A stretch of DNA of 21,160 bases from an uncultured Acholeplasma sp. (GCA_964600775.1 CAZRKJ010000010.1:1-21160); one strand, 5' to 3'; counted from the first letter of the stretch, positions 1 through 21,160 are shown. Numbers and translations are program-made. The notes: generated by a model from the letters alone, not told the origin.

Positions 1-596
1 TTTGGATCTGTAAACCAGTCAAAACGGTATGTACGCCACTCAAAATCATTTTGTGGATATGGTAGCTCATGCGATCTTGTACTAAACTCAGTTAAACTAA
101 TCCAGTTTGTCGTCCAAACACGTCTAAAATCATTTTCTACATTATTTTCAATATCAATTTCATGGTTCATGCCATTGTTATAATAATATGTCCACATTGC
201 CGTTGTAGAGCCAAATCTTGGCATAATACGCATACGTACTTCAAAACGACCAGGTCCTAATGCTTCTCTTGTTTTTATCATTGCCCCTGTACGTCTACCA
301 TGTGTATTTCCAATACCACGAAGTGGTCCATCATATAGATCGCCATTGGTTTGTAAGACAACAATACCATCTGCAGTGTAATGTACGTTTTCATAGATAA
401 CGCCACCATTGCCCACACCCCATTTAGAATTTCCTACGACCCACATATTTGGATCAATACCATTATCAAAGTCATCAAAGATGATATTATCTAAGTCCAA
501 AAATTTATTAGGATCAAACTGTGAGCCACCATCTTCAACACAGCCTACTAAAATGAGTGAAAGTATAAAGATTATTATTAAGCTTATTTTTTTCAT
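1..596 (-). CDS. Glycoside hydrolase family 16 (beta-1,3 / beta-1,3-1,4-glucanase-like) lipoprotein. The N-terminal ~198 aa are present; the 3' end runs off the window start.
   Basis: I translated the minus strand by hand. It starts with ATG at 596..594 and reads MKKISLIIIFILSLILVGC|VEDGG... The signal peptide ends in the lipobox LVGC. Further on comes ...GNSKWGVGNGGVIYENVHYTADGIVVLQTNGDLYDGPLRGIGNTHGRRTGAMIKTREALGPGRFEVRMRIMPRFGSTTAMWTYYYNNGMNHEIDIENN... The motif E-I-D-I-E matches the GH16 catalytic signature E-[ILV]-D-[IVAF]-[VILMF](0,1)-E. There is no stop in the window, so it is not in the ORF track. Confidence 0.8.
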   Translation of the reverse strand, partial: MKKISLIIIFILSLILVGCVEDGGSQFDPNKFLDLDNIIFDDFDNGIDPNMWVVGNSKWGVGNGGVIYENVHYTADGIVVLQTNGDLYDGPLRGIGNTHGRRTGAMIKTREALGPGRFEVRMRIMPRFGSTTAMWTYYYNNGMNHEIDIENNVENDFRRVWTTNWISLTEFSTRSHELPYPQNDFEWRTYRFDWFTDP

Positions 597-609
597 AGTT
601 TTACTTCCT

Positions 610-1779
610 TTATTTTTTTGCTACAACACCAAATGCATTTGTTACACCTACATGGATTGCACCATAAATGATGTTTTCATCACCTAATGTAGTGTACTTA
701 ATGCTAATATCAGTAATTTTTGAATCAATACCTTCATTGACCCAATCTAAATATTGTTGACCAAGTGCTTTTATACGACCACCAATAAAGAATTGACGGT
801 AGTTAAATATATAACTTAAGTTAGAAATCAATTCACCTAGTTTATTTGCTGTATACTTTACAACGTCTAAAACGACTTGATCATTGTTGTAAAAAGCTTT
901 AACAACATCACGGTATCTAAATTGCATGGCCACTTCTGTTTCTTTGCCCATATATTGTTGATAACTAATTTGTTTTTTTATTGAGTTAATCGAACAGATT
1001 AAGTCATAAACCATGTTGTTACCAAATTGATCATATGTAGAAATTAATCCAAACTCTGCAGCATATCCATGATCACCTTCAATGATTCTGTTTTCATTTA
1101 AGATAGCACCACCCATACCTGAATCTACATAGATTAAAATACCATTTTCTGCAATACGTTCAATCTTACCGTAGTGCTGTTCTCCAATAATTGCTAAGTT
1201 GATGTCATTTTTTAAAATAACGTTTAAATTTAGTTTTGCTTCAAAAAATGACCTTACTGGTATATCTTTTACGATTTTAAATTTAACCGAGTTTTCTATT
1301 TCATCATTAAACTTATTAATTTGTCCTGGAGCAGATACAATAATTGAAATAATTTTACATTTATCTGTTTCAAATTGTGTTTTCTTATTTAAGATAATTG
1401 AACAAATTTCGTTCAAATCATCTAAAGTTAAAAACTCTCTTTCTTCGATTACAGTTTCATCAAATATTTGACCATTTAAATAAGAAAAGACAATTTTAAT
1501 GTAGGTCGATCCAAATTCAACTACACCTAAAATACCTGCATCTTTTTTTATTGCATAAAGTGTACGTTTATACTTTTCATTGTCATCACCATTAACTGCT
1601 AGATTTTCAACTAAATGCATACTCTCCATCTCAGAAAGTATTTTAAAAACAGCTGTTTTGGATAACTTTAAAGCTTTTGCAATATGTGTTGCAGACATTT
1701 TTTTTGTATATAAAAGTCTCAAAATAGATTCGATATTATTTTCTCTAATACCTGTATTTTTTACACCTTTTGCTGTCAT
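610..1779 (-). CDS. ROK-family transcriptional regulator (NagC/XylR-like repressor with an N-terminal wHTH)
   Basis: 389-aa ORF. The N-terminus (NTGIRENNIESILRLLYTKKMSATHIAKALKLSKTAVFKILSEME) looks like a MarR-type wHTH. The ROK signature region is LIYVDSGMGGAILNENRIIEGDHGYAAEFGLIS. The gene lies 13 nt upstream of the GH16 gene on the same strand. Confidence 0.8.
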   Translation of the reverse strand: MTAKGVKNTGIRENNIESILRLLYTKKMSATHIAKALKLSKTAVFKILSEMESMHLVENLAVNGDDNEKYKRTLYAIKKDAGILGVVEFGSTYIKIVFSYLNGQIFDETVIEEREFLTLDDLNEICSIILNKKTQFETDKCKIISIIVSAPGQINKFNDEIENSVKFKIVKDIPVRSFFEAKLNLNVILKNDINLAIIGEQHYGKIERIAENGILIYVDSGMGGAILNENRIIEGDHGYAAEFGLISTYDQFGNNMVYDLICSINSIKKQISYQQYMGKETEVAMQFRYRDVVKAFYNNDQVVLDVVKYTANKLGELISNLSYIFNYRQFFIGGRIKALGQQYLDWVNEGIDSKITDISIKYTTLGDENIIYGAIHVGVTNAFGVVAKK

Positions 1780-1863: not shown

Positions 1864-4800
1864 TTAAACCAATGCTATTTGAACTTTCAATGTCGGTACG
1901 AAACCTTCACTAATTGTCCATATTTGAGTATCAAATGATGCATAAGTTGCTGCACTTACAAACGCTGCTGGACTTATAAAGTATGTGCCATCATCTAAAA
2001 CTGCACCAAAGGATCTAAAGTTCGTTGTACCAATCGTATCTATATTTGCATAGACATCAACAACAGTACCAAAGTTTGTTGCTAGTAATCCAACCGCTGT
2101 TGGACCATTATCTGATACAGCTTTACCTAATACAATAATATTTTGTAAAACGCCGTGATTGTGTAGTACTAATGCAGCACCATTTGCACCATAAACATAT
2201 ACTTCAATGTCAACGACGACATCTTGTATTGTACCTGCATTATGTGCAACTAATCCAGCAGACCATGCATTGGCTTCCACATATCCTTCAAAGTGTGTAT
2301 TTTTAACGACACCATCAGCACCAACAAAACCAAAGAATGCCTTTGTCCAACCACCATTTGGCATGTTAATACCAGAAATCATAAAACCTTGACCATCAAA
2401 GATGCCAGTAAATGCAACACCTGCAATACCTTCATCTTCATTAGGAGCAATACCTATAGCCACCCAGTTTTGTGTTAGTTCTATATTTGCTGTAAGCATA
2501 TAAGTCTTGCTTAGCATTTCAGGATCAACTTGTCCTGAAAGATATGTTAATAGTTCTGTTTCATTAGAAATGTATACTGTATCACCTAAAACTGGTTCCT
2601 CAGATGATTCATTTATAAGTACTGGAACCATACCCTCAACGATTAACCATATAGCATCATCAAACGCTGCATAAGTAGCTGCTGCTAAAAAGCTTGCATT
2701 TGAAATAATATATGTACCATCATCTAAAACTGCACCAAGGGATTTAAAGTTTGGTGTACCAACTGTATCTGCGTTTGCATATACTTCAACAACAGTACCA
2801 AAGTTTGTTGCTACTAAGCCGTTTGCACCTGAATCAGATGCAACAGAACCTAAAACTACTATGTTTTGTAAAATACCGTGATTATGTACTGCAATTGCAC
2901 CACCATTACCACCATATACATAAACATCAATTTCAACGATAACATCTTGAATGGTACCTGCATTGTGTGCAACTAATCCAGCAGACCATGCATTACCTTC
3001 TACATATCCTTCAAAATGTGTATTCTTAACAACACCATCAGCACCAACAAAACCAAAGAATGCTTTTGTCCAACCACCATTTGGCATGTTAATACCAGAT
3101 ATTTTATAGCCTTGTCCATCAAAGATACCAGTAAATGCAACACCTGCAATACCTTCATCTTCATTAGGTGCAATACCTATAGCAACCCATGGTGATGTTA
3201 ATACGATATCACTTGTTAATACAAATGTTTTACTTAAATTTTCAGGATTTGTTTGACCTGACAATAAATTAACTAATTCAGTTTCATTTGAAATATATAC
3301 AGTATCATCAACGATTTCAGGGTTATAAACTGCACTAAATGTTTTTTCTGTAGATACTTCAGTACCTTCAATAGATACAACTACAGTAAATGAAAAACTT
3401 GCAGAAACTAATTCTAAATCAAAAGTTACTAAACCTGTTTGATCAATTGAAACACCATTGACTGCATCCTTAAGCGCATAGACTAATAACTCTTCACCTA
3501 AAGGATTAAGAATCGTTGTATCCACTTGTAGTGATTCATCAATTTCTAAGTCTAATGCTACGATTGTATTATCAATTGAAATACCTAACTCTGGAACAAT
3601 CACTGGCGGTACAAAACCTTCATATTTTAACATTGGTGCAATACCATCAGTAACATACCAAATATCTGTATCAAAGGCTGCATAGGTTGCAGCTAAGATA
3701 AAGTTTTGAGCAGAGATGATGTATGAACCATCATCAACGACAGTTCCAAAGGATGCTAGATTTGCTGTGCCTACTGTATCTGCATTCGCAAATACATTTT
3801 CAAGTGTACCAAAGTTTGTTGCAACTAAACCAACAGCAGTTGGACCGCTATCAGATGCAACGCGTCCTAAGACAACGATATTTTTTAATAGACCATGGTT
3901 ATGTACAACAATTGCACCACCATTCGCTCCATAAACATATACAACCATCTCAACAACAACATCTTGAATGGTACCTGCATTATGCGCAGCAATCGCACCA
4001 GACCATGCATTCGCTTCTACATAACCTTCAAAGTGAGTATTTTTAACAACTGCATCTGCGCCAATAAACCCAAAGAATGCTTTTGTCCAACCACCACCTG
4101 GCATATCAATACCAGAGATTGTATAGCCTTGTCCATCAAAGATGCCTGTAAATGGAACACCTACAATACCATCATCTTCATTTGGTGCTAAACCAATTGC
4201 AGTCCAAGGTGTTTCTAAAACAATATCATTTGTTAAGACAAATGTCTTACTTAAGTTTTCAGGATTCATTTGTCCTGAAAGTAAGTTTAATAATTGTGCT
4301 GCTGTAGAAATATATACAGTATCATCAACGATTTCAGGATTATAAACACCTGTAAATGCACGTTCTGCAGTAATTTCTGTACCTTCAATTGTGACTACAA
4401 CTGTAAATGAGAAACTAGATGCGACAAGTTCTGGATCAAATGTAACTAAACCAGATGCATCAATACTTACCCCTGCAACTGGTGCTTTAAGTGCATACTC
4501 TAATACTTCACCACCACTAGGGTTAACAACTTCAGCATTAATTTGAAGTGTTTCAGACACTTCTACATCAACTTCTAATACCGTGTTTCTAATTGCTACA
4601 GCACGCTCTAAAACGATTACAGGTGGCTCAAAACCATCATGTTTTAATAACGGATATGTACCATCTGCAATATACCAACGATCTTGATCAAATGCAGACC
4701 AAGTAGATGCTGATTTCATATCTACTGTTGGTAGCATGTAATTTGGATTAGTCGTAGGAACAAATGCTGCATAGTTTGGTGTTTCAAGTGTTTGATAATC

Positions 4801-5712
4801 TCCATAAACTTCAACCATAGAACCATCATTGGCAACAACTAAACCAGCTGAACGTCCGGATGTATTTGGATTGGTTTCACTAACAACTTTACCAATACCA
4901 TAAGCATATTGGATTAAACCTCTATTGACAGATACAATAGATCCTGCAGAAGTTCCTGCAACAGTTACAACCATATTTGAAACAACATTTTCAATTAAAC
5001 CTTCATTAATACCTGCAATACCACCAGACCATCCGGTTGCATTTACAACACCTTCAAAAGCCGTGTTTCTAACAATGGCTGTAGGTCCGATTTGTGCAAA
5101 GAATCCACCATTAAATAATGGTTCTTCACTTGAAATATCAATACCGCTAATTGTAAAACCATTACCATCAAATATACCAGTAAATGGATCACCAGCAATA
5201 ATATCACCAGTGTCTAGTTCAACTTCAGCAACACCAATTGGTGTCCATGGTGCAGTTAACTCAATATGATTCATTAAGATATATGAACCAGCTAATCCAC
5301 CTTCTGCTGTATTGATCGCACGTAGTTGTGCTTCTGTTGTAATCTCAACAGCTTCTACACCTACATTTTCAACTGTAAAGACAATTGTTTGACGAATTGT
5401 TGGATCATATACAGATGTTGCTACAACTGTAAATGTTGTACCATCTTCAACCGCATTACCAATGTTTAATTTATCATCAGTAATTGATACGCCACTGACA
5501 ATGCCTTGAACTGTAAATCGAATCTGTTGATTTGAACCTTCAGGTAATGCAACTGCAACTAATGTATGCTCACCTGGGGTCAATGTTGTTGAATCCATTT
5601 GAAATTGAATAGATTCAACATCTGGCACGTTTGGTTGTTCTTCTTCACTTGGGGTACATGCTACTAAGACAAGTGATAAAAGAAGTACCATAATCGTAAT
5701 AATCTTTTTCAT
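1864..5712 (-). CDS. Very large surface lipoprotein (1282 aa). Domain order: N-terminal Big_2-like Ig domain, then four tandem GLUG-motif beta-solenoid-like modules (A to D), with extra Ig-like domains after modules A and B.
   Basis: The ORF starts MKKIITIMVLLLSLVLVAC|TPSEEE (lipobox LVAC). A putative RBS reads AGAGGGTAAAGT-ATG. Modules begin at aa ~119, 465, 804 and 1045. Each contains FTGIFDG[QN]G[YF]xISGI...GG(W)TKAFFGF[VI]GAD..V.NTHFEG.V......G...HNAGTI.DV.V...V...G.NGGA...HNHG.L.N..VLG. The N-terminal module reads W-S-G-G-I-A-G-I-N-E-G-L-I-E-N-V, which resembles the GLUG (PF07581) consensus. Ig-like segments: ESIQFQMDSTTLTPGEHTLVAVALPEGSNQQIRFTVQG; and VSETLQINAEVVNPSGGEVLEYALKAPVAGVSIDASGLVTF. 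Confidence 0.85.
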   Translation of the reverse strand: MKKIITIMVLLLSLVLVACTPSEEEQPNVPDVESIQFQMDSTTLTPGEHTLVAVALPEGSNQQIRFTVQGIVSGVSITDDKLNIGNAVEDGTTFTVVATSVYDPTIRQTIVFTVENVGVEAVEITTEAQLRAINTAEGGLAGSYILMNHIELTAPWTPIGVAEVELDTGDIIAGDPFTGIFDGNGFTISGIDISSEEPLFNGGFFAQIGPTAIVRNTAFEGVVNATGWSGGIAGINEGLIENVVSNMVVTVAGTSAGSIVSVNRGLIQYAYGIGKVVSETNPNTSGRSAGLVVANDGSMVEVYGDYQTLETPNYAAFVPTTNPNYMLPTVDMKSASTWSAFDQDRWYIADGTYPLLKHDGFEPPVIVLERAVAIRNTVLEVDVEVSETLQINAEVVNPSGGEVLEYALKAPVAGVSIDASGLVTFDPELVASSFSFTVVVTIEGTEITAERAFTGVYNPEIVDDTVYISTAAQLLNLLSGQMNPENLSKTFVLTNDIVLETPWTAIGLAPNEDDGIVGVPFTGIFDGQGYTISGIDMPGGGWTKAFFGFIGADAVVKNTHFEGYVEANAWSGAIAAHNAGTIQDVVVEMVVYVYGANGGAIVVHNHGLLKNIVVLGRVASDSGPTAVGLVATNFGTLENVFANADTVGTANLASFGTVVDDGSYIISAQNFILAATYAAFDTDIWYVTDGIAPMLKYEGFVPPVIVPELGISIDNTIVALDLEIDESLQVDTTILNPLGEELLVYALKDAVNGVSIDQTGLVTFDLELVSASFSFTVVVSIEGTEVSTEKTFSAVYNPEIVDDTVYISNETELVNLLSGQTNPENLSKTFVLTSDIVLTSPWVAIGIAPNEDEGIAGVAFTGIFDGQGYKISGINMPNGGWTKAFFGFVGADGVVKNTHFEGYVEGNAWSAGLVAHNAGTIQDVIVEIDVYVYGGNGGAIAVHNHGILQNIVVLGSVASDSGANGLVATNFGTVVEVYANADTVGTPNFKSLGAVLDDGTYIISNASFLAAATYAAFDDAIWLIVEGMVPVLINESSEEPVLGDTVYISNETELLTYLSGQVDPEMLSKTYMLTANIELTQNWVAIGIAPNEDEGIAGVAFTGIFDGQGFMISGINMPNGGWTKAFFGFVGADGVVKNTHFEGYVEANAWSAGLVAHNAGTIQDVVVDIEVYVYGANGAALVLHNHGVLQNIIVLGKAVSDNGPTAVGLLATNFGTVVDVYANIDTIGTTNFRSFGAVLDDGTYFISPAAFVSAATYASFDTQIWTISEGFVPTLKVQIALV
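1867..5358. repeat. Four intragenic tandem direct repeats. Unit D is about 1867..2580, C about 2581..3303, B about 3304..4320, A about 4321..5358. B, C and D are roughly 85 to 92% identical at the DNA level over stretches of a few hundred bp. Unit A is more diverged.
   Basis: I aligned by eye. Compare 2279..2470 with 2999..3190 and with 4019..4210. One example is gtccaaccaccatttggcatgttaataccaga, a 32-nt exact match between units C and D. Other long near-identical runs end in ...ccttgtccatcaaagat.ccagtaaatgcaacacctgcaataccttcatcttcattagg... Confidence 0.8.
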
Positions 5713-5757: not shown

Positions 5758-6627
5758 TTAACCTTTTAATCCACCTGCTACCATGTTTTCCATAATTGTA
5801 TTTCTAAATGCAATAAATACTGCAAGAATCGGTACAATTGAAATAATCATTGTAGCAAACATTTCGGCATAAGCCCCTTGAGAAACCATCGTTTGTGTTA
5901 GGTACCTAATACCTAATGCAAGCGTTGGATAATTCCTTAAATAAATTGATGGTGTGATGTAATCATTCCATATACCAATACCATAAATAATTGCTAAAGA
6001 TATCATGATCGGTTTAGCCATCGGTAGCATGATCTTTAAGAATACTTGAAAATCTGATGCACCATCAACAAATGCAGCTTCTGCATAGGTTGGTGAAATG
6101 TTTTTAAAATACCCATGCATAATAAAGAATGTAAAGCCAAATGATCCTGAATACAATACTAAGATACCTAAAATAGAATTATATAAACCTAGCGATTGCA
6201 TTAATCTAAACTGCGCTGGTAACGTACCAACAATCGGCATTATTAATGTGAATAATGCAATACTATATATCAGATTACGTCCTTTAAAACGGTATCTAGC
6301 TATAACATATGCTGCCATTGATGAAAGCATTGTATTAATGAATGTTGCAAGTAATGTAATGACCACACTTAATAAAAACATATGTGTAATATTAAATGTA
6401 CCTGCTGCTGTTTGCATGTTATAACCTAAAACATTCATGTAATTTCTAAAACCAAAGGACTGTGGTAATGCCCAAATATTTGTAAAGAACTCTTGATTGG
6501 ATTTAAAGGAGTTCACAAGCATCCATGCAAACGGAAATAATAATGTAAATGCATAAATAGAAAATGCGCCAAATATGATCCACAATATTACTCTTGCAGG
6601 TGTTGAATAAAAGCGATGTGTCCTCAT
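5758..6627 (-). CDS. Carbohydrate ABC transporter permease (CUT1 family, MalG-like)
   Basis: 289-aa polytopic membrane protein. The EAA-like region is ...YAEAAFVDGASDFQVFLKIMLPMAKP... The ATG start overlaps the upstream permease stop in a TAATG-type junction at 6627. Confidence 0.85.
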   Translation of the reverse strand: MRTHRFYSTPARVILWIIFGAFSIYAFTLLFPFAWMLVNSFKSNQEFFTNIWALPQSFGFRNYMNVLGYNMQTAAGTFNITHMFLLSVVITLLATFINTMLSSMAAYVIARYRFKGRNLIYSIALFTLIMPIVGTLPAQFRLMQSLGLYNSILGILVLYSGSFGFTFFIMHGYFKNISPTYAEAAFVDGASDFQVFLKIMLPMAKPIMISLAIIYGIGIWNDYITPSIYLRNYPTLALGIRYLTQTMVSQGAYAEMFATMIISIVPILAVFIAFRNTIMENMVAGGLKG

Positions 6628-7571
6628 TAGTATTCAACCTCCGTAAAGAATAGATTCAGTGTCCTTCTCGTTAACAATATAATTGGTAACCCAAATATGG
6701 ATAATATAATACCAAATGTTGCCATATAGGCGATATTTTGATTTTGAATAACTGAGTTATATATAGCAAGAGCAATCGTATTGGTATCACCACTTGTTGG
6801 CGTTAAAAATAGTGGTTGTAAGAGCGCTGTAAATACCGATGTCATACCTAGAATAAAGGTTGTGACAATTGTTGGCCAAATAAGCGGAATAACAACTGTA
6901 GTAAACTCTTTAAAGAAGCCAATGCCTTCTAATTGTCCATATTCCATCAATTCTTCTGGAATACGGGTAATTGCACCTGTCATTAAGATAATGTTGAACC
7001 CTAAACCTACCCAAACACCGTAGACAAAGATCATTATTTGGTTGGTTGGGTAGCTACCAAACCATGATGGTACAATAACTGTTGAATCAAACATACCAAA
7101 GAACCACTTATAAATATCGTTTACTGGACCTAAATTAGAGTCAAATGTAAATGAGAATGCCATCGTCATAACTACTATTGGTAAAATCGATGGTAAGAAG
7201 TATACAACTCTAAAGAATCCAGAAAATGGTACTTTTTTAAATAAGAAATAAGAAAATGCCATTGATAAAGGTAATATAACTAAACTATTAATCGGCATGT
7301 AAAAAAGTGAATTAATAATTGTTCTTCTGGTCCACTCATCATTAGCGATTCTATCAAAGAACATTACATAATTATCAAACCCGCTATAGATGTATCGACC
7401 TTCAGTCCATGAAAACTTTTGAAAAGTTAAAACAATCGTATCGAAGTTGACATACCCAAAAAACAGTGCAAACTGAAGTACGGGGTATGCCAACATTAGT
7501 GTAATAAATATACGTTGTTTAGTTTTTTTCTTAAGTATTCTTTTTTTCTTTACTTCGATACTCTTTTCCAC
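6627..7571 (-). CDS. Carbohydrate ABC transporter permease (CUT1 family, MalF-like)
   Basis: Polytopic membrane protein. The region ...MEYGQLEGIGFFKEFTTVVIPLIWPT... matches the permease signature region. The ORF-track start at 7601 is a TTG that overlaps the solute-binding-protein gene by 25 nt and has no SD. An in-frame GTG at 7571 (..IDVEK..) lies just after that gene's stop and has a weak AGGT SD, so I prefer it. The start is uncertain by about 30 nt. Confidence 0.75.
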   Translation of the reverse strand: MEKSIEVKKKRILKKKTKQRIFITLMLAYPVLQFALFFGYVNFDTIVLTFQKFSWTEGRYIYSGFDNYVMFFDRIANDEWTRRTIINSLFYMPINSLVILPLSMAFSYFLFKKVPFSGFFRVVYFLPSILPIVVMTMAFSFTFDSNLGPVNDIYKWFFGMFDSTVIVPSWFGSYPTNQIMIFVYGVWVGLGFNIILMTGAITRIPEELMEYGQLEGIGFFKEFTTVVIPLIWPTIVTTFILGMTSVFTALLQPLFLTPTSGDTNTIALAIYNSVIQNQNIAYMATFGIILSIFGLPIILLTRRTLNLFFTEVEY

Positions 7572-7576
7572 ATCTA

Positions 7577-9022
7577 TTAACCTGCTATTTCTGATTGCCA
7601 AGTAGCCCAGTTTGATTGAATATGTTGATAACTACTTACAAATATACCACGTACATCATAGGTATTATCAACCAACCAAGCTTCTGGGTTTATTAGGTAA
7701 TCACGTGTATTGTAATGATTAAATAATGTTGCATAATATTGAAGATTTTGTGGTGGCCATTCTAGCCCAACTTTACCTTCAAGGATCATTAATGAGTTAC
7801 TATATAAGTTAAATTTTTGACTATTTCTGTTAATTTCAAGAATTGATTTAGAAAATTCTGAAAGATTTTCCTCATCAAGTTCTACTGTGTCATAGTTCAT
7901 TGCAAGTAGTACACCATTGGTTTTTTCTGTAAATGTTGCAATACTTGAATCTTTTGCTAAGAATAATAAGAATTGTTTTGCTAATTCTTTATTCGGTGCA
8001 CGTTTTGGAATAATGATTGAATCTCCTGCACCTACTGTATAGTTCACACGAATTGGATTGCCTTCTGTATCGGTTTTAGCATTCGCCATAAATGGTGCTG
8101 GCATCATACGCATTTCCATAATTTCAGGGTTAATATTAGCAATCATTTCACTTTCAAGCCACTGTGCATTAGGAATCATTGCAGCATAACCATTTAAAAA
8201 GTCCATTTGAGCAGCCATATATTGTTTACCAACCGAATCCTCCACAGAGTGTAATGGCTTTTTAGCAATCAAATTTGTCCACGCTTCTAAAGCTTGATAA
8301 TGACCTGGGTGTAGATCTGGGTTAAATACATCCGTTGAACCAAGTGCAGTGTATGTTTCAAAGAAGCCTGTTCCATTTATTTGAGCCCACCAGTCAAAAA
8401 CTAAGTAATCCCAGTAATAAGTTTCTTGACTCCATACAAAGGGTTTAATAGTTGCTGCATTGGGTTTCATATCATTTGGATCAACTTTAATGTTTGCATT
8501 ATAAATTGTATCCGCTAAAGTTACCAATTCTTCATAAGTTTCAGGAACTTCCCATCCGTTATCTCTAAACATTTTTGCATTATATACTATACCACCAACT
8601 CCATTAGTCCATGGTAACTTATAATATGTATCGTTAAATGATGCTGTTTCTAATAAACTTTGATCAATTTTATCTATTAGTTTAATACCATTTTCTACTT
8701 CTTGCTGCATTAAATCATTTAGCGGTTCAATGTGTCCTTGAACAGCTAAAAATTCCCAGTTAATACCATGGGAGAAGAATATATCATCAGGTGAACCATT
8801 TTGTAATCTATTTGGAATATCTGATGCCAAATCAGGATTTGCTTCGATTGTAACCGTAACACCTGGATTTTCGGCTTCAAATTGTCTGGCAAGTGTATTA
8901 ATCCAAACTTGCCCATACCCGCCTAAATATACAGATATTTTTAAACTATTTGGGTCATTTGTAGTACATGAAGCAAGTACAAATGCACCAAATGCTAATA
9001 ATGTGAGAAATATTTTTTTCAT
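7577..9022 (-). CDS. Extracellular solute-binding lipoprotein of a carbohydrate ABC transporter (family 1 SBP)
   Basis: The likely true start is ATG at 9022. A GAGGTGA SD lies 5 nt upstream. The product begins MKKIFLTLLAFGAFVLASC|TTNDP (lipobox LASC). The ORF-track start at 9031 is an upstream in-frame GTG. The size (~480 aa) and W/Y-rich sequence are typical of sugar SBPs. Confidence 0.8.
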   Translation of the reverse strand: MKKIFLTLLAFGAFVLASCTTNDPNSLKISVYLGGYGQVWINTLARQFEAENPGVTVTIEANPDLASDIPNRLQNGSPDDIFFSHGINWEFLAVQGHIEPLNDLMQQEVENGIKLIDKIDQSLLETASFNDTYYKLPWTNGVGGIVYNAKMFRDNGWEVPETYEELVTLADTIYNANIKVDPNDMKPNAATIKPFVWSQETYYWDYLVFDWWAQINGTGFFETYTALGSTDVFNPDLHPGHYQALEAWTNLIAKKPLHSVEDSVGKQYMAAQMDFLNGYAAMIPNAQWLESEMIANINPEIMEMRMMPAPFMANAKTDTEGNPIRVNYTVGAGDSIIIPKRAPNKELAKQFLLFLAKDSSIATFTEKTNGVLLAMNYDTVELDEENLSEFSKSILEINRNSQKFNLYSNSLMILEGKVGLEWPPQNLQYYATLFNHYNTRDYLINPEAWLVDNTYDVRGIFVSSYQHIQSNWATWQSEIAG

Positions 9023-9059
9023 AACTTTCACCTCTTATAAGTTAATTTAGTTTACTTTA

Positions 9060-9095
9060 TCTAAAGTATATCACAGTGTGAAATCGTTTACAAGC
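9060..9095 (-). promoter_or_regulatory. Candidate sigma-A promoter of the ABC-transporter operon (-35 TTGTAA, 17-nt spacer, extended -10 TGaTATACT on the minus strand). A cre-like palindrome TGAAATCGTTTACA at 9079..9092 overlaps it.
   Basis: Read on the minus strand: TTGTAAacgatttcacactgtgaTATACT, about 35 nt upstream of the SD. The cre-like element matches the Firmicutes consensus WTGNAANCGNWNNCW at 14 of 15 positions. Confidence 0.4.
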
Positions 9096-9289
9096 ATTTT
9101 AATGATTTTATTTAGTTATCTTAATTTACTTATCTGATGATCAAAAAAAATCAATAAAATGACCATGTTTTTATCGGTTTTTTTATATTTTTTTACGCTT
9201 ATAAATATCCTTCATATCAGAAGTTATTATTTTTCTTGTATTAATTATCATTATCTATGTTTTAATTCTGTTAATCTTAATCCAAATTA

Positions 9290-10789: not shown

Positions 10790-10932
10790 ATTTACTTAAC
10801 CTCTTTCGATTTTTCGTTTTATTTTATTATACCTTAAATATTTTTATTATGCCGTTTTTATAATAATATTTGCATCCATTTTAGTATTTATTAGTTTCAT
10901 AAATTTCTAAGTTATAGTTATGAGATTTGCAT

Positions 10933-10989
10933 ATAACCTTTTATGTACATTAGGCGTTTTACAATAACATGTTAAACACCTAATGTACA
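10933..10989. promoter_or_regulatory. Inverted repeat ATGTACATTAGG ... CCTAATGTACA with a 33-nt spacer, in the flotillin upstream region
   Basis: 11-bp perfect arms. It lies ~145 to 200 nt upstream of the flotillin ATG. A perfect -10 (TATAAT on the minus strand = plus 10826..10831) lies between the repeat and the gene. Confidence 0.3.
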
Positions 10990-11168
10990 ACGTAACAAGG
11001 TGCACTTATCCCCTAATGCATATTTTCATGCAACCCAGCTCTTATTTAATCATTGCTTCACATGATTAAACAGGGCATATCTGTCCTAATTGTCACTTTA
11101 TATTAATAAACTACCAACATGCAATATGTTGATAGTTTAGTATTATGTGTTTAATTTTGAATAATTGA

Positions 11169-11333
11169 CTAACTTTGAATTGGTTCATTAAAGTAATACA
11201 TTAAGTATTCCAATACTTTTTCAAGTGGTATAGCATAACCAATGGCATTTAAGTCAAATGCACCATCCTTTATACCTGCATAATTGATACCAATAATTTC
11301 AAATGATGTATTTAATATGACACCACCTTCCAT
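11169..11333 (-). pseudogene. Remnant of a trypsin-like (HtrA/DegP family, S1C) serine protease gene. Only the C-terminal end of the protease domain survives (54 codons).
   Basis: The minus strand translates to MEGGVILNTSFEIIGINYAGIKDGAFDLNAIGYAIPLEKVLEYLMYYFNEPIQS*. The HtrA consensus near the catalytic Ser is GNSGGPLvNldGEvIGINtAi......GiGFAIP. This fragment matches GG.L.N..E.IGIN.A and IGYAIP. No upstream coding continuation exists in any frame. The fragment lies within a 728-bp non-coding stretch. Confidence 0.45.
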
Positions 11334-11474
11334 ATATTATACAAATATATGTGCTTAATTATTGGTAAATAATTTAATAATCAATAAATAGGGTAATTTT
11401 TTTACTTAAAAATAATGTGGATTGATTATATCATAGATATAAGATGCACATGTTATATAGACGCATAAACTATA

Positions 11475-11494
11475 GGCAGCCAATATTGGCTGCC
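11475..11494 (-). terminator. Perfect 20-bp palindrome GGCAGCCA-ATAT-TGGCTGCC, 23 nt downstream of the lipoprotein gene stop. Likely a transcription terminator hairpin; it could work in both directions.
   Basis: 8-bp GC-rich stem with a 4-nt loop. The flanking sequence is AT-rich but not a clean U-tract. Confidence 0.45.
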
Positions 11495-11517
11495 TAAATT
11501 ATGTAAAATATTTAGAT

Positions 11518-13508: not shown

Positions 13509-13532
13509 TTTTTATTTCCCCTTTGTTTTTTT

Positions 13533-13919
13533 TTATTTTATAACATCAATAATAGGTATGTCAGCTGCTGCAAAATCATAGTCTTTCATTTCGCTTTTAG
13601 TCAAAAATTTAAAGTCTATATGTTCTGTAGGTCTAAATTCACCACTAACATGATGCACCATATACACATGTAACTTAATTAAAAATGTGTCATATTCATG
13701 AAATACTGTTAAGAGCGGGTTTAATACTTGTACCTTGATCCCAAATTCTTCATCCAACTCCCTTACCAAAGCAACTTCATGTGTTTCACCGGTTTCAATC
13801 TTACCCCCAGGAAACTCCCATTTAAATGCCAGATCTCCTTTAGCACCTCTTTTTGCTACAAAGTATGTATGACCTTTTTTTATAACTGCTGCAACAACTT
13901 CTACTTGCTTTTTTTTCAT
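13533..13919 (-). CDS. NUDIX hydrolase (MutT/NudG-like nucleoside di/triphosphate pyrophosphohydrolase)
   Basis: 128 aa. The Nudix box is GGKIETGETHEVALVRELDEEFG, matching GX5EX7REUXEEXGU. SD is AAAGGAAAG. Confidence 0.85.
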   Translation of the reverse strand: MKKKQVEVVAAVIKKGHTYFVAKRGAKGDLAFKWEFPGGKIETGETHEVALVRELDEEFGIKVQVLNPLLTVFHEYDTFLIKLHVYMVHHVSGEFRPTEHIDFKFLTKSEMKDYDFAAADIPIIDVIK

Positions 13920-13934
13920 TGAACTTTCCTTTAA

Positions 13935-15076
13935 CTAGATACCTAGATAATCATAAACGTTTTTAACAGTATCAATTTCACTATCATTTGAAACTGATTT
14001 TAATCGCATTTTTGTGTTCTTGATTTTAAAAAGTTGTTTAAATATTCTAACAAACCATGCCCATGGTAATAACCATGCATGTTTCTTTAAATATGGATAG
14101 GCTTCTAATAAACGTTTGCGACTAGGAAAAACTTCACCTAAAAAATATCTAAACCTAGACTTTTTTAGTCTTGTTTGTTCAAATGTTCTTTTGGTAATAT
14201 ATGGATCATGTTTTGTACCTGAACCGTGAATACCACTTTGCATAATGTAAGCCATAATGTCAAAATCTTCTCTATTTGGCTCAACTTGATTTAGAAATAT
14301 TTTGTTTAGATGCATAACTTTTTGATTAAAGACATCTAGTTTATATGTCTTTAAGTAGCCATCTAAGATATCTTTATCCATGATGTCATCATAATGATTA
14401 TAATACACCCACATATCTAATAAACTTCTAATACCTACACCAGAGGTCCTTATATGGCGTATTAAATGTGTTAACAAATAGACATACTCAAATTCTGGTT
14501 TTAGTTTATGTGTAAAGCCAAAATCTAAATAGACATTTTCCCATAACTGACTTAGGAGTACTTCATTTTCATATTCATTACTTGATGTAATACTTTGATG
14601 TAGCTCAATATAATTACCATCTATAGTTTCAAAGACATGATGGTGTGATGTTGCTGATTTAAATGTATACCCTGCATCTATTAGATTTTTTTTGCTTTAT
14701 CAAAATCTAATTTAGGTACAACACAGTCAATATCACCCATACCCCGCATATAAGTTTCTGGATATAATTGTTTTAAGTGTGAACCCTTTAAAAATACATG
14801 CTTTATTTCATGCTGATTAAAAAGTTTTTTTATGTCTTCAATAATTGCTTGTTGCTGGATATCTTTAGATACAAAAGAACCAAATGCTTGCGTAAGCATT
14901 TGATAATATTTTTGCATTTTAAAAGTAGACTGATTAATTGACTGATATACCAATCCGACTAAACCATTTTCAAATATAATTTTTGTTAGTGAAAGTTCAT
15001 CTAAGGTTTCGAATTGAAACCTTTCTTGCTTAAAACTTTTTTCTATCAATTGAAATAAAATCAGATTATTATTCAA
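13935..15076 (-). pseudogene. Nucleotidyltransferase-family protein (PF14907 / NTP_transf_5-like) split by a frameshift. The N-terminal ORF is 14681..15076 and the C-terminal ORF is 13935..14477. A +1A change (or -2A) in the A8 tract fuses them into a single ~383-aa ORF.
   Basis: The N-terminal part carries the Pol-beta-fold motif HVFLKGSHLKQLYPETYMRGMGDIDCVV. I checked the frames by hand. The upstream frame ends ...FDKAKKI*. The downstream frame is open from the codon right after a TAA at 14697..14699. It reads SKKNLIDAGYTFKSATSHHHVFETIDGNYIELHQ...LTHLIRHIRTSGVGIRSLLDMWVYYNH... into the second ORF. With 9 A's the junction would read ..DKAKKNLIDAG.. Confidence 0.7.
14686..14693 (-). repeat. 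Homopolymeric tract, A8 on the coding strand (T8 on plus), at the frameshift site of the nucleotidyltransferase gene
   Basis: Direct read of gattttttttgc at 14684..14695. Confidence 0.9.
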
Positions 15077-15093
15077 AATACTCTTACATCCTT

Positions 15094-16974
15094 TTAAACA
15101 TTGTTTGGATTATAGGATTCTACAATTTGACATACATGTTTTTTAACTTCATCATTTGTTAATGTTTCAAGTGTTTCAATTAAACTATGTACAGCTGCCA
15201 TACTTAAGTGGTTACCATTACCATTTTCAATAAAAATAAGTTTATTATCTGTTTTTTGGATATTTGGATCATTGACATCTAGTAACAGTTCTTCATATAG
15301 TTTTTCACCAGGACGTAAGCCAACAACTTCTATCTTGATATCCTCGCCTACTTTGTAGCCAGCAAGACGTATCATCTTTTCAGCAAATTCATAAATTTTA
15401 ACTGGTTGGCCCATATCTAAGATAAATAACTCACCATTTTTAGCATATACACCACACTGTAAAATTAAACTTACTGCTTCTGGTATCGTCATAAAGTATC
15501 TTGTGATTTCTTTATGTGTAACCGTTACAGGACCACCATCTTCTATTTGTTTTTTAAATAATGGAATAACAGAACCATTAGAACCTAATACATTACCAAA
15601 CCTAACAGCTGTGAAACTGGTTTGGCTGTGTTTTTGTTCATTCATGATAACAAGCTCTGCAAAGCGTTTGGTTGCTCCCATAATATTGGTTGCACGTACG
15701 GCCTTGTCACTACTTACTAAAACAAACTTTTTAACACCATACTTGGTTGATAATTCTGCTGCATTTAAGGAACCAATCACATTGGTACGTACAGATTCTA
15801 CAGCACTATCTTCCATTAGAGGTACATGTTTATATGCAGCAGCATGGAATACAATGGTTGGTTTAAATTCTTTAAATATCTCTTCTAATCTAATACGGTT
15901 ATACACACTACCAATACGTACATCTAATTTTGGATATTTTATACTTGGATCTTTATATGCTTTTCTAACAAGTTCCATTTGAATCTCGTAAGCATTATTT
16001 TCATAGATATCAAAAATAATTAATTGTTTTGGTTTTAATTCAAATATTTGGCGACAAAGTTCACTACCAATGGATCCACCACCACCGGTTACCATAACAA
16101 CCTCACCAGAAATAAATTCGCTAATACCATCATCATCTAGTCTAATAACAGGACGATCAAGTAAATCTTCTACTTTAACTTCAACTAATTTCGTATTTTG
16201 ATTTTGATTAACATTCTCTATGAGATTAAGTTTCTTTACACTTAAATGTAATTTAATAAGTCTATTAACGAGATCATGGAACTTAACTTTAGGATAATCT
16301 TTAATCGCTAAGACAACTTCTTTAATATCATATTTATGAACAATCATTTCAATGTCGTTTGATGTACCTAAAATTGTAATGCCCATTATTTGACGGCCAA
16401 CTTTTTCTTTGTTATCATCAATAAAACCAACCGGTACATTATTTAGTTTTCTGTTCTTATATAACTCTTTTAAAACCATTTCACCAGCAGAACCGGCACC
16501 AATAATCAATGTGCGAACACCAGATTGTTGATAGGTTTTCAACCTAAATTGATATGTTAGAAGGTTTGTTGTACGTCTAATGATACGTGGTAGCATCATA
16601 CCAGTAATTTCAATGAGTGAAATTATGATAAATGCTGATTCAGTCATTAAAGGTAAACTAAATATTGCAATTAATAATGCTATTAATGTATTTGCTATCG
16701 TTACAACAATTACAATTCTAAAGAAATCTTCAAAGGAAGCATATTTAGAAATAATTTTGTAAATACCTGTAAAGTAATTGATTAATATCTTAATAGGTAT
16801 AATAAATAAAAAGGCGTTCCAGAGCATTTGGTGATCATAGCTTAACTGTATGTCACCGCCCATGTTTCTAAACACCCAAATGGTAAGATAATAAGATGCA
16901 ACAATGGTTGCAATATCATATACTACATACTTATAGACTTTTATAAATGACATGATTTTCTCTTTCTTTGACAT
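15094..16974 (-). CDS. capD: Membrane-anchored polysaccharide biosynthesis protein of the CapD / PglF / WbpM family (UDP-GlcNAc 4,6-dehydratase-like, Polysacc_synt_2)
   Basis: 626 aa. It has four N-terminal TM helices and two Rossmann motifs (LIIGAGSAGEMV and VMVTGGGGSIGSELCRQI). The SDR-like catalytic region is ...VLVSSDKAVRATNIMGATKRFAEL... Strong SD (AAAGGGGAGA). Confidence 0.85.
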   Translation of the reverse strand: MSKKEKIMSFIKVYKYVVYDIATIVASYYLTIWVFRNMGGDIQLSYDHQMLWNAFLFIIPIKILINYFTGIYKIISKYASFEDFFRIVIVVTIANTLIALLIAIFSLPLMTESAFIIISLIEITGMMLPRIIRRTTNLLTYQFRLKTYQQSGVRTLIIGAGSAGEMVLKELYKNRKLNNVPVGFIDDNKEKVGRQIMGITILGTSNDIEMIVHKYDIKEVVLAIKDYPKVKFHDLVNRLIKLHLSVKKLNLIENVNQNQNTKLVEVKVEDLLDRPVIRLDDDGISEFISGEVVMVTGGGGSIGSELCRQIFELKPKQLIIFDIYENNAYEIQMELVRKAYKDPSIKYPKLDVRIGSVYNRIRLEEIFKEFKPTIVFHAAAYKHVPLMEDSAVESVRTNVIGSLNAAELSTKYGVKKFVLVSSDKAVRATNIMGATKRFAELVIMNEQKHSQTSFTAVRFGNVLGSNGSVIPLFKKQIEDGGPVTVTHKEITRYFMTIPEAVSLILQCGVYAKNGELFILDMGQPVKIYEFAEKMIRLAGYKVGEDIKIEVVGLRPGEKLYEELLLDVNDPNIQKTDNKLIFIENGNGNHLSMAAVHSLIETLETLTNDEVKKHVCQIVESYNPNNV

Positions 16975-17310: not shown

Positions 17311-17345
17311 ATAGAAAAAAGCACCTGCATTTTAGCTGCAAGTGC
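17311..17345 (-). terminator. Rho-independent terminator of the pfkA-pyk operon
   Basis: On the minus strand the hairpin GCACTTGCA-gctaaaa-TGCAGGTGC (GCAC/GTGC and TGCA/TGCA stems with one mismatch) is followed by TTTTTTCTATTTAT. It lies 20 nt after the pyk stop. Confidence 0.6.
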
Positions 17346-17364
17346 TTTATGATAATCTAATCAA

Positions 17365-18757: not shown

Positions 18758-19708
18758 TTATCTTAATTTTTTAATTAAATCGTATAACTCAACGCGTTCT
18801 TTTGGATGGTTAATAATATCTTTTAATGGTGATATCACTAACTTATCATCTTTAATCCCTACACAGTGTCCACTGACACCTTTCATAATCGATTCAACTG
18901 CAAATGCACCCATACGTGATGCAAGTATTCTATCTTCAGCAATTGGCGTACCACCACGTTGGATATAACCTAATACGGTTGCTCGTGATGTAAACCCTGA
19001 TTTAATAGAAATTTCAGCAGCAAGTTTATGGACATCAAATTGTTGTTCGGTTACAACAATAATTGCATGTCGTCTACCTTCTTCATTATGTTTTCTTAAA
19101 GTAGAAATTAATTTATCTTTATTAATTGGGTTTTCCGGTGTAATAATAAACTCTGCACCACCACAAATACCAGCATATAATGCAAGATCTCCAGATGTTC
19201 TACCCATTACTTCTATAATACTACAACGTCTATGAGATGATGATGTATCACGCAGTTTATCGATTGCTTCAACAATAGTATTTAATGCGGTATGAAATCC
19301 GATTGTATAATCTGTTCCGTACACATCATTGTCAATAGTTCCTGGAATTGCAATTGTTTGGAATTCTAGTTCATGTAGTGCTTGTGCACCTCTGTAACTA
19401 CCATCACCACCAATAACAATTAACGCATCAATACCACGATTACGTAAATTGTCGATTGCAACCATTTGAACTGGCACTTCTTTAAACTCAGAAACTCTTG
19501 AAGTTCCTAACTTTGTACCACCAATGCTTAACATTCCTGAAACGTCTTTGGATGTGAGTGGAATAAATCTGTCTTCTAAAAGTCCTCTATAACCATCCAT
19601 AATACCAAACATTTCATGACCCTCTGCAATGCCTGCACGCACAATTGCACGAATTGCTGCGTTCATTCCAGGTGCATCGCCACCAGAAGTTAAAACTGCT
19701 ATTTTCAT
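18758..19708 (-). CDS. pfkA: ATP-dependent 6-phosphofructokinase
   Basis: 316 aa. Starts MKIAVLTSGGDAPGMNAAIRAIVR. It has GGDGS (LIVIGGDGSY) and PGTIDND (IAIPGTIDNDV). The Gly at both E. coli positions 104 and 124 marks an ATP-dependent enzyme. SD is GGAGGTATGACAT-ATG. Confidence 0.9.
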   Translation of the reverse strand: MKIAVLTSGGDAPGMNAAIRAIVRAGIAEGHEMFGIMDGYRGLLEDRFIPLTSKDVSGMLSIGGTKLGTSRVSEFKEVPVQMVAIDNLRNRGIDALIVIGGDGSYRGAQALHELEFQTIAIPGTIDNDVYGTDYTIGFHTALNTIVEAIDKLRDTSSSHRRCSIIEVMGRTSGDLALYAGICGGAEFIITPENPINKDKLISTLRKHNEEGRRHAIIVVTEQQFDVHKLAAEISIKSGFTSRATVLGYIQRGGTPIAEDRILASRMGAFAVESIMKGVSGHCVGIKDDKLVISPLKDIINHPKERVELYDLIKKLR

Positions 19709-19982
19709 ATGTCATACCTCCTTATACGCCGTTTAATATTATATCATGTTTTAGCCAATAAATAATGCTTAAAATATGAATATTTCTTCCAATCATTAAT
19801 TTCTTTTTAAATAAACGTTACCATATGCTTTAATTACTACATTTTGCAATAATTTAATACTTTTGGTTACAAAAATATCAATAAATTCAACATTAAGCAC
19901 AATAGTGTTTGCAATAACGGACATTCTTTGATAAACTTATTAGTGGATTTTTACATATAAAATTTAAAAAGGACGGTATACA

Positions 19983-21160
19983 ATGAAAAAATTAGTTGGT
20001 GCTGCACTCTTAGGTCAATCTGGTGGTCCTACATCAGTGATCAATGCCTCAGCAGCGGGCGTATTTTTAGAGAGTTTAAAGCATGAAGAAATTACAGAGA
20101 TATATGGTGCACAACATGGTATTAAAGGTATCTTAGATGAAAACTTCTATGATATTAGAAAAGAAGATGTTGAAGAGTTAGAAAGATTAAAATATACACC
20201 ATCTTCTGCAATTGGTTCAGTAAGATATAAATTAAAGGATTTTAAAAAAGATCCAACGGACTATAATAAGTTATTAGAAATCTTTAAAAAATATAATATT
20301 CGTTACTTCTTCTACAATGGTGGTAATGACTCAATGGATACATGTTTAAAAATTTCTAAGTTTATGAAAACAGCTGGTTGGGAAATGCGTGTTGTAGGGG
20401 TACCTAAAACAATTGATAACGACTTAGCTGGTATTGACCACTCACCAGGTTATGGTTCTGCTGCAAAATATGTAGCAACCTCAATTATGGAATTATATTT
20501 AGATGGTACAGTTTATAACACACAACAATTTGTTATTGTTGAGGTTATGGGTAGAAATGCAGGTTGGTTAACAGCTGCAGCAAGCCTAGCATCTATTGGT
20601 GGTGTTAAACCAGACTTAATTTACCTACCAGAATTACCATTTGACATGGATAAATTCTACCAACAAGTTGGTGACTTACTAAAAACAGGTAAATCAGTAT
20701 TTGTTGTTGTATCTGAAGGTATTAAAACTGCTGAAGGTAAATACATTCCTGAATATGAAGCAGAAATTGCACGTGATGCGTTTGGTCATGCAAACTTAGG
20801 TGGTACTGCAAGTGTACTTGCAAGCCATGTTGGTCAAAAATTTGGTGTAAAAACACGTGCAATTGAATTCTCATTACTACAAAGATCAGCAGCACACATC
20901 GCATCTCAAACAGATATTAATGAAGCATTTAAAGTTGGTCAATTAGCAGTTAAAAAAGCAATCTCAGGTACAACAAACAAATTTGTCGGTATCCAAAGAG
21001 TACCAGGTGAAACTTATAAAGTTAAGTATCCACTATTACCACTTAAGATTGTTGCGAATGCTGAACGTAAAGTACCAGCAGAATGGATCTTACCTGATGG
21101 TAAAGGTTTAACTCAAGAATTTATCGATTATGCGCTACCTTTAATCCAAGGTGAAACAAA
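19983..21160 (+). CDS. pfp: Pyrophosphate-dependent phosphofructokinase (diphosphate--fructose-6-phosphate 1-phosphotransferase). The N-terminal ~392 aa are present; the 3' end runs beyond the window.
   Basis: ATG at 19983 with an AAAGGA SD 10 nt upstream. The product starts MKKLVGAALLGQSGGPTSVINASAAGVF... It includes ...FFYNGGNDSMDT..., ...VGVPKTIDNDLAGIDHSPGYGSAAKY... and ...VMGRNAGWLTAAASL... GGNDS and PKTIDND put Asp and Lys where ATP-PFKs have Gly104 and Gly124, which is the PPi-PFK signature. It is not in the ORF track because it has no stop. Confidence 0.8.
   Translation, partial: MKKLVGAALLGQSGGPTSVINASAAGVFLESLKHEEITEIYGAQHGIKGILDENFYDIRKEDVEELERLKYTPSSAIGSVRYKLKDFKKDPTDYNKLLEIFKKYNIRYFFYNGGNDSMDTCLKISKFMKTAGWEMRVVGVPKTIDNDLAGIDHSPGYGSAAKYVATSIMELYLDGTVYNTQQFVIVEVMGRNAGWLTAAASLASIGGVKPDLIYLPELPFDMDKFYQQVGDLLKTGKSVFVVVSEGIKTAEGKYIPEYEAEIARDAFGHANLGGTASVLASHVGQKFGVKTRAIEFSLLQRSAAHIASQTDINEAFKVGQLAVKKAISGTTNKFVGIQRVPGETYKVKYPLLPLKIVANAERKVPAEWILPDGKGLTQEFIDYALPLIQGET

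Follow-up and report, generated by a model that had tools for sequence, protein, structure and literature searches.

Is a gene that breaks at a run of eight adenines switched off, newly lost or wrongly read? The question is raised by one locus on a 21,160-nt contig from an uncultured Acholeplasma sp. (GCA_964600775.1, CAZRKJ010000010.1:1-21160), which was analysed over its whole length and is referred to here as the window. On its minus strand, the reading frame of a nucleotidyltransferase gene changes at a homopolymer, A8, leaving two adjacent open reading frames (ORFs) of 131 and 180 amino acids, and a first-pass annotation of the sequence proposed a slipped-strand phase switch, with a fresh pseudogene or a sequencing indel as alternatives. 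The explanation that we favour, and consider probable by a modest degree, is a fresh polymorphic allele, null or leaky (hypomorphic), that arose by a very recent A9-to-A8 slip in a lineage-specific homopolymer of a conserved PF14907 gene. Events of this kind are well known, and the locus adds a new example.

One gene, one lesion

The locus is one single-copy PF14907 (NTP_transf_5) nucleotidyltransferase gene at 13935..15076 on the minus strand, split at the A8 run into the following parts.

13935..15076, minus strand: whole frameshifted nucleotidyltransferase gene, with a TTG start that is also found in orthologues; 380 amino acids when the tract is A9
14681..15076, minus strand: 5' ORF of 131 amino acids, with the N-terminal helices, the G-S motif and the D115-x-D117 strand; it ends ...DFDKAKKI, followed by TAA (14683..14681) and then TAG
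14686..14693, minus strand: A8 homopolymer, the frame-change site; in the 0 frame GC-A_AAA_AAA-TC, an in-phase X_XXY_YYZ heptamer
13935..14696, minus strand: downstream (-1) frame of 253 open codons, from AGC at 14696 to the stop at 13937..13935, with the core strands (H146, E158, H160) and the C-terminal helical domain

The sense sequence around the tract is ...GAT TTT GAT AAA GCA AAA AAA ATC TAA TAG..., so that the A8 appears on the plus strand as T8 (14686..14693), and it is there that the two frames join, as the first-pass annotation had stated. The downstream frame was likewise correctly described as open immediately past the tract: it begins S-K-K-N-L-I-D right at the run, and the 180-amino-acid ORF (13935..14477) is only the portion that follows its first canonical start, TTG at 14477. 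Insertion of one A (A9) results in a single ORF of 380 amino acids and removal of two (A6) in one of 379, so the proposed repair works but gives neither time the ~383 residues first reported. The truncated product has the C-terminus ...LDFDKAKKI, and the junction peptide of the full-length product is AKKNLIDAGYTFK. At codon 129 of 380, the tract is a third of the way along the gene and not close to its 5' end. No second stop or indel was found within the gene, the A8 lesion being its sole defect.

Chance falls far short of explaining how the two ORFs come to be halves of one gene. Nearly the whole PF14907 profile is matched by the A9 product (profile positions 7-248 of 249; E=6e-48, with 164 bits where the cutoff is 31.2), which bears out the earlier assignment of both ORFs to one nucleotidyltransferase of this family, and it aligns across 98-100% of its length with intact proteins of 371-384 amino acids. 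In a 43-sequence alignment, all family-invariant residues are kept (24/24, including G98, D115, D117, H146, E158 and H160), as are the near-invariant columns, and the GS...DxD and HHH motifs that had been expected are all present as G98-S99, D115-x-D117 and H146 within an HHH run. Conserved residues 3' of the break comprise H146, E158, H160, H204, H208, G213, G215, R217, D221, G282, H284, G285, L336 and R344.

An AlphaFold2 model of the repaired protein (pLDDT 92, pTM 0.89) located the break within helix 122-134; the DxD strand (116-119) precedes this helix, and strands 138-142, 146-150 and 156-160, which carry H146, E158 and H160, follow it. Foldseek matched the model solely to nucleotidyltransferases of the Pol-beta superfamily, and weakly (poly(A) polymerase, ANT(2'')-Ia, LnuA and Cid1; E 3e-4 to 1e-2). 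In its full-length profile match, its G-S...DxD...E/H residues and its Pol-beta nucleotidyltransferase fold, the protein resembles the PF14907 family, from which it differs by its interrupted ORF. Sequence searches revealed neither a characterised member of this family nor a solved structure: we found no NCBIfam model, no PDB sequence match and one incidental mention in the literature. With A8, the frameshift interrupts the PF14907 domain after residue 130. Because the 131-amino-acid product would lack the strands with H146, E158 and H160 together with the C-terminal domain, it should be catalytically dead on the evidence of the model, even though it keeps the G-S and DxD motifs.

Age of the lesion, origin of the tract and an in-frame counterpart

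We measured selective constraint as the ratio of nonsynonymous to synonymous divergence (NG86 dN/dS). Against the closest full-length orthologues, it was 0.11 (L002, 86% amino-acid identity) and 0.10 (L003, 85%); in the out-of-frame part it was 0.12 and 0.08, respectively, and between the intact L002 and L003 it was 0.12. The dN to the outgroup L007 was 0.235 for the window versus 0.248 and 0.252 for the intact genes, showing no acceleration. In contig L089 (SRR31629362, 89% nucleotide identity), the last 205 codons are intact and the contig ends before the tract. Over these 205 codons, the window branch since L089 has acquired 15 synonymous and 9 nonsynonymous changes, where neutral change would be 81% nonsynonymous (binomial p=3.7e-6), and the L089 branch 11 and 5 (Fisher p=0.75 versus the window branch). 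The gene thus displays neither the relaxed constraint nor the multiple disabling lesions of a decaying pseudogene. Since dN/dS is ~0.1 in both halves, with no acceleration and no second lesion, the lesion is very young, and if the gene is a pseudogene it would be a very recent one. The suggestion of a recently inactivated gene therefore agrees well with the single lesion and with an omega of about 0.1 even in the out-of-frame part.

The tract is not shared with relatives. At this site, L002 reads GCT AAG CAA ATT TTA and L003 reads GCT AAA CAA ATT TTA (both orthologues at 85-86% identity), where the window has GC(A) AAA AAA AAT CTA. A homopolymer run at the site was found in none of ten orthologue coding sequences (0/10), the distant ones having unrelated codons in a variable helix, and the run therefore arose in the window lineage. 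Each of the ten has one to six in-frame A7/A8 or T7/T8 runs at other positions. Within the window, A8/T8 runs are not enriched (6 versus 10.5 +/- 5.2 in dinucleotide-preserving shuffles), and in-frame A8 runs also occur in the NUDIX and ROK genes. These comparisons point to a lineage-specific run that arose by few substitutions as a by-product of AT-rich Lys codons. Among 82 other homologous loci, all single-frame, no genuine frameshift was detected; L046, considered as a second frameshifted homologue, proved to contain an N-run scaffold gap instead.

An in-frame version of the gene (...DKAKKNLIDAGY...) is present in a different sample, SRR5690606, where the evidence consists of protein-level Plass fragments. 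One of these, P0063 (SRC, SRR5690606_38589478), matches residues 12-129 exactly (118/118 upstream of the tract) and continues ...DFDKAKKNLI. A junction-centred search returned another, P0066 (SRR5690606_13142374), which reads ...DFDKAKKNLIDAGYTFKSATSHHH..., its sequence at the junction being also given as KQLYPETYMRGMGDIDCVVPKLDFDKAKKNLIDAGYTFKSATSHHHVFDTIDGNY..., is 95% identical and extends 82 amino acids beyond the junction. From A8 reads, protein-level assembly could not join ...KAKKI* to SKKNLID..., so SRR5690606 must contain reads with an in-frame K-K-N junction. Where P0066 differs, the window has the P0002 or P0004 state in four of five cases, so the window copy again shows no decay.

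Among populations, the tract is thus out of frame in three assemblies and K-K-N in P0063 and P0066 (both proteins, P0066 at 95%). The frameshift appears to vary between populations, although reversibility does not follow from an in-frame allele. The comparison of tract length in relatives that had been proposed as a check gave a divided answer: an in-frame K-K-N state, equivalent to A9, in SRR5690606, and nearest orthologue DNA without the run. The exact repaired proteins of 380 and 379 amino acids were absent from a collection of 15 billion sequences, scans for tract-length variants with exact-flank DNA patterns (5-12 bases at the tract) returned 0 matches in genome and metagenome contig collections, and a protein-seeded scan of metagenome contigs yielded no confirmed relative.

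We propose the following course of events. Substitutions would have converted GCT-AAR-CAA-ATT (A-K-Q-I) into GCA-AAA-AAA-AAT (A-K-K-N), creating an in-frame A9, and a very recent slipped-strand loss of one A, from A9 to A8, would then have shifted the frame. Translation would end two codons past the tract and release the 131-amino-acid product. With the A8 allele as the consensus in landfill-derived assemblies and the in-frame allele in the other sample, the locus would be polymorphic, and slippage of RNA polymerase on A8 or -1 slippage of the ribosome on A_AAA_AAA may still supply wild-type protein at a low level. On this proposal, the gene exemplifies how AT-rich, lysine-rich genes make their own fragile sites, three point substitutions giving rise to A9 and a slip following. 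It also illustrates that constraint analysis alone can show the split of a gene in a metagenome-assembled genome to be fresh. For annotation, both ORFs should be merged as one frameshifted gene.

Competing explanations

Several points weigh against a fresh null or leaky allele. The in-frame allele is seen as protein, and its DNA could be A9 or an interrupted run. A8 as the majority state is known from assemblies, which may derive from one landfill project or even from one read set. A null allele could become the consensus in a large environmental population only through drift, hitch-hiking or selection for loss, and the last of these would equally fit adaptive ON/OFF variation. Finally, ON and OFF alleles in near-identical genes are the exact prediction of phase variation.

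Evolved slipped-strand phase variation is accordingly the first alternative to consider, and we regard it as possible but rather unlikely. At such a contingency locus, the tract would toggle the nucleotidyltransferase, and with it a capD-linked surface-glycan modification, at high frequency, the landfill population being mostly OFF. A change of +/-1 indeed toggles the frame (A8 out; A9 and A6 in) with the downstream frame open at the tract, different samples contain OFF (A8) and in-frame alleles of nearly identical genes, purifying selection continues to act on the gene, and the adjacency to a capD-like gene is conserved. A mollicute precedent is the poly-A tract of Mycoplasma hominis vaa, which is ON at 8 and OFF at 7 or 9 and switches at 1e-3 to 1e-4 (PMC524362). 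The two loci share an intragenic A8/A9 run, a mollicute lineage, toggling of the frame by +/-1 and the presence of ON- and OFF-type alleles in nature. They differ in that vaa encodes a surface adhesin with a tract at the 5' end, conserved among isolates and with measured switching at 1e-3 to 1e-4, whereas the window gene encodes a cytoplasmic-type nucleotidyltransferase with a tract at codon 129, absent in the nearest orthologues, in an environmental host. A further poly-A tract phase-variation system is that of Mycoplasma fermentans P78.

A tract maintained by selection as a contingency locus would not be expected to look like the present one, which is absent from the nearest orthologues with DNA at a site in a variable helix and belongs to a class of runs that is not over-represented in the window. 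The gene is rich in AT and Lys, and all its orthologues have in-frame A7/A8 runs in random places; the tract is mid-gene, at codon 129 of 380, and none of the 82 other homologous loci is frameshifted. In addition, a surface role of the product is unproven in an uncharacterised family, and the host is an environmental Acholeplasma from landfill leachate. Of the slipped-strand switch first suggested, the +/-1 toggling and the ON- and OFF-type alleles stand, while its evolution as a switch does not follow from a mid-gene tract that is absent in orthologues and a window in which A8 is not enriched. Any A8/A9 tract can revert, yet nothing points to this one having been selected as a switch.

A more specific version, in which a capD-coupled nucleotidyltransferase modifies a surface glycoconjugate of a free-living landfill Acholeplasma, for example to vary a phage receptor, and is switched reversibly by A8/A9, is more doubtful again. 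If true, it would mean that mollicute-style poly(A) phase variation is not confined to host-adapted mycoplasmas but also occurs in an environmental relative with the standard code, and it would provide a first phenotype for the uncharacterised PF14907 family. Mixed A8/A9 on one haplotype would make this the first candidate phase-variable locus in Acholeplasma and a handle on the function of the capD-PF14907 pair.

The possibility that the genome is truly A9, the gene intact and the A8 a sequencing or assembly error is, in our judgement, improbable. Homopolymers are prone to indels, the gene is otherwise undamaged and under full selective constraint, its in-frame version is present in SRR5690606, and the A8-bearing assemblies are perhaps not independent. 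However, the 131- and 180-amino-acid ORFs are on record from three differently produced assemblies that give identical splits, namely the 21,160-bp NCBI contig, ENA ERZ27247346 k141_755975 (L001, a MEGAHIT assembly with the same A8) and a JGI/IMG contig of 1,470 bp. The k141-type and JGI contigs were assembled from short reads, and in assemblies of this type the majority consensus rarely errs at an A run of 8-9 nt. Genes at the remaining A8 and T9 runs of the window are undamaged. L001 departs from the window sequence in its last 83 bases and nowhere else; at position 17968, the window has A where L001 and the JGI landfill contig L087 have T, and thus A8 sits on contigs that differ at a linked single-nucleotide polymorphism. 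The frameshift therefore looks genuine, and the sequencing indel that had been offered as an alternative is unlikely given the same split ORFs on the NCBI, ENA MEGAHIT and JGI contigs.

Some observations on these contigs may be recorded here. L001 and the Logan contig L086 (SRR8449813) both end at window coordinate 12173, inside a 425-amino-acid hypothetical gene where nothing repetitive is visible, which suggests a shared read set or a strain-variable site. L086, L087 (JGI landfill LW2) and L090 (ERZ1756178, 95% nucleotide identity) all end before the nucleotidyltransferase gene. An apparent sequence difference between L087 and the window, an ORF of 106 versus 56 amino acids, was discarded, being merely a TGA read-through in the JGI gene call.

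Recoding as the normal mode of expression, by programmed -1 frameshifting on A_AAA_AAA or programmed transcriptional slippage, would produce the full-length enzyme alongside the 131-amino-acid product; we consider it very unlikely. The A_AAA_AAA heptamer is precisely in phase with the 0 frame, the A9 sequence DKAKKNLID results from a -1 slip (or from an extra A added by RNA polymerase), and the 0-frame stop follows two codons later. The gene also remains constrained, which the youth of the lesion explains equally well. The folds downstream are weaker than those of shuffled sequences (56 nt, -1.6 kcal/mol, z +1.65; 96 nt, -9.7 kcal/mol, z +0.99), and no Shine-Dalgarno-like or GGAGG-like element was seen by eye in the 30 nt upstream. 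The two-frame layout is not conserved, the orthologues and the 82 homologous loci being single ORFs, and close relatives encode the junction in frame. With dnaX and the -1 frameshifting of the IS3 family of insertion sequences (IS; A_AAA_AAG or A_AAA_AAA), the site shares an in-phase slippery heptamer and a nearby 0-frame stop, but it differs from them in having neither a downstream hairpin or pseudoknot nor an upstream Shine-Dalgarno-like stimulator, and in its unconserved layout. A programmed frameshift was rejected on these two grounds, stimulator and conservation.

Unprogrammed leakiness that gives some full-length product is plausible, and would be compatible with the favoured reading of a fresh null or leaky allele. 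According to the literature, runs of ~9 A or T are slippage-prone in many bacteria, and 8 A are enough in some IS elements. The gene resembles poly(A)-frameshifted genes that are rescued by polymerase infidelity (human apoB A8; endosymbiont genes; 'ORF-restoring' 9A/9T, Baranov et al. 2005, PMC1088944) in that a one-base indel lies in an A8/A9 run of a constrained gene and slippage would restore the frame. It differs from these cases in that its genome is not known to be that of a degenerate endosymbiont and that rescue is predicted from DNA.

A functional split gene, whose 131- and 180-amino-acid ORFs would be made separately and assemble into an active enzyme, can be set aside: gene finders call both ORFs and both match PF14907, but with the first start at TTG 14477, residues 132-200 have no canonical start codon and would be lost, and with them invariant H146, E158 and H160 as well as three core strands, and no homologue is organised in two ORFs.

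Neighbourhood, organism and other features

Three features surround the nucleotidyltransferase gene.

15094..16974, minus strand: capD/PglF/WbpM-like membrane-anchored sugar-nucleotide 4,6-dehydratase (Polysacc_synt_2, E=4e-115), with its stop 17 nt upstream of the nucleotidyltransferase start
13533..13919, minus strand: MutT-like NUDIX gene, 15 nt downstream of the nucleotidyltransferase, with an in-frame A8 at its own start (13909..13916)
17318..17348, minus strand: terminator-like hairpin after pyk, the upstream boundary of the capD-nucleotidyltransferase-NUDIX unit

The minus-strand order is pfk, pyk, hairpin, capD/PglF-like, nucleotidyltransferase, NUDIX, SHOCT, two hypotheticals, flotillin, sugar ABC transporter, a 1282-amino-acid repeat protein and ROK. 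The NUDIX gene is probably in the same transcription unit as the nucleotidyltransferase, and the adjacency of the latter to the capD-like gene is kept throughout Acholeplasma (L002-L007, L009, L011). Of the polysaccharide-type cluster that had been described, the adjoining capD-like gene is there, while the neighbours form no wider polysaccharide cluster. Other long runs in the window are the A8 at the NUDIX start (13909..13916, ATG AAA AAA AAG), a T9 at 13526..13534 between SHOCT and NUDIX and an A8 at 1698..1705 in ROK. The Logan contig L086 starts at window position 13917, directly beside the NUDIX A8, which could reflect read-level length heterogeneity there. Inside the nucleotidyltransferase gene, a terminator-like palindrome at 14879..14904 was dismissed as a by-product of conserved Q-M-L-x-Q-A-F-G codons with no independent signal, and Rfam and tRNA scans of the window gave no matches.

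Among named relatives, Acholeplasma granularum and A. laidlawii come closest, at 64% identity; the closest sequences of all are metagenomic contigs, and the GTDB representatives do not include the source genome. Contigs 99.95-100% identical to parts of the window were found in IMG 3300028603 (leachate well LW2 of a Southern Ontario municipal landfill, 2017), SRR8449813 and ENA ERZ27247346. Given these near-identical contigs, the organism is an uncultured environmental Acholeplasma with the standard genetic code and not a host-restricted mycoplasma; the host-associated setting evoked for the switch does not apply to an organism found in landfill leachate.

A second gene has been lost nearby. 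In the gap at 10790..11517, positions 11169..11327 (minus strand) are all that is left of a trypsin-like serine protease gene, its final 53 codons, 96% identical at the amino-acid level to residues 360-412 of the L002 protein. This gene is intact in L002 (5797..7032, Flg_new and Trypsin_2, 411 amino acids) and in L003, and ~1.05 kb of it is deleted in the window. The deletion, 3 kb from the frameshift, is a second gene-loss event, and the lineage is thus losing genes in this neighbourhood. Relatives also differ by an insertion or deletion in the otherwise syntenic locus: between the nucleotidyltransferase and NUDIX genes, L005 (A. laidlawii, 6175..9135) and L007 (an uncultured Acholeplasma, 6186..9140) carry a defence-like gene of ~985 amino acids with PLD-nuclease, ResIII-helicase and DUF3427 domains, which is absent in the window, L002 and L003. 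In Acholeplasma equifetale, two matches, L010 (31..1152) and L011 (5001..6122), have the same identity (44.652%) and E-value to the query and both lie at scaffold ends, which suggests a repeat or an assembly duplication.

Elsewhere in the window, two divergently oriented phosphofructokinase-family genes lie at 19968..21158 (plus strand) and 18758..19708 (minus strand); the plus-strand copy (PF00365, E=4e-58), a second and more divergent type, runs off the contig end. The 1282-amino-acid ORF (1864..5712, minus strand) has no Pfam match and contains three or four repeats of ~300 nt, 723-1032 nt apart and 74-91% identical; beside the sugar ABC transporter, it is possibly a repeat-domain surface protein. 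At 3..620 (minus strand) lies an ORF that is cut off by the 5' end of the contig; its N-terminus is like that of a lipoprotein, and it contains a glycosyl hydrolase family 16 domain (E=3e-7).

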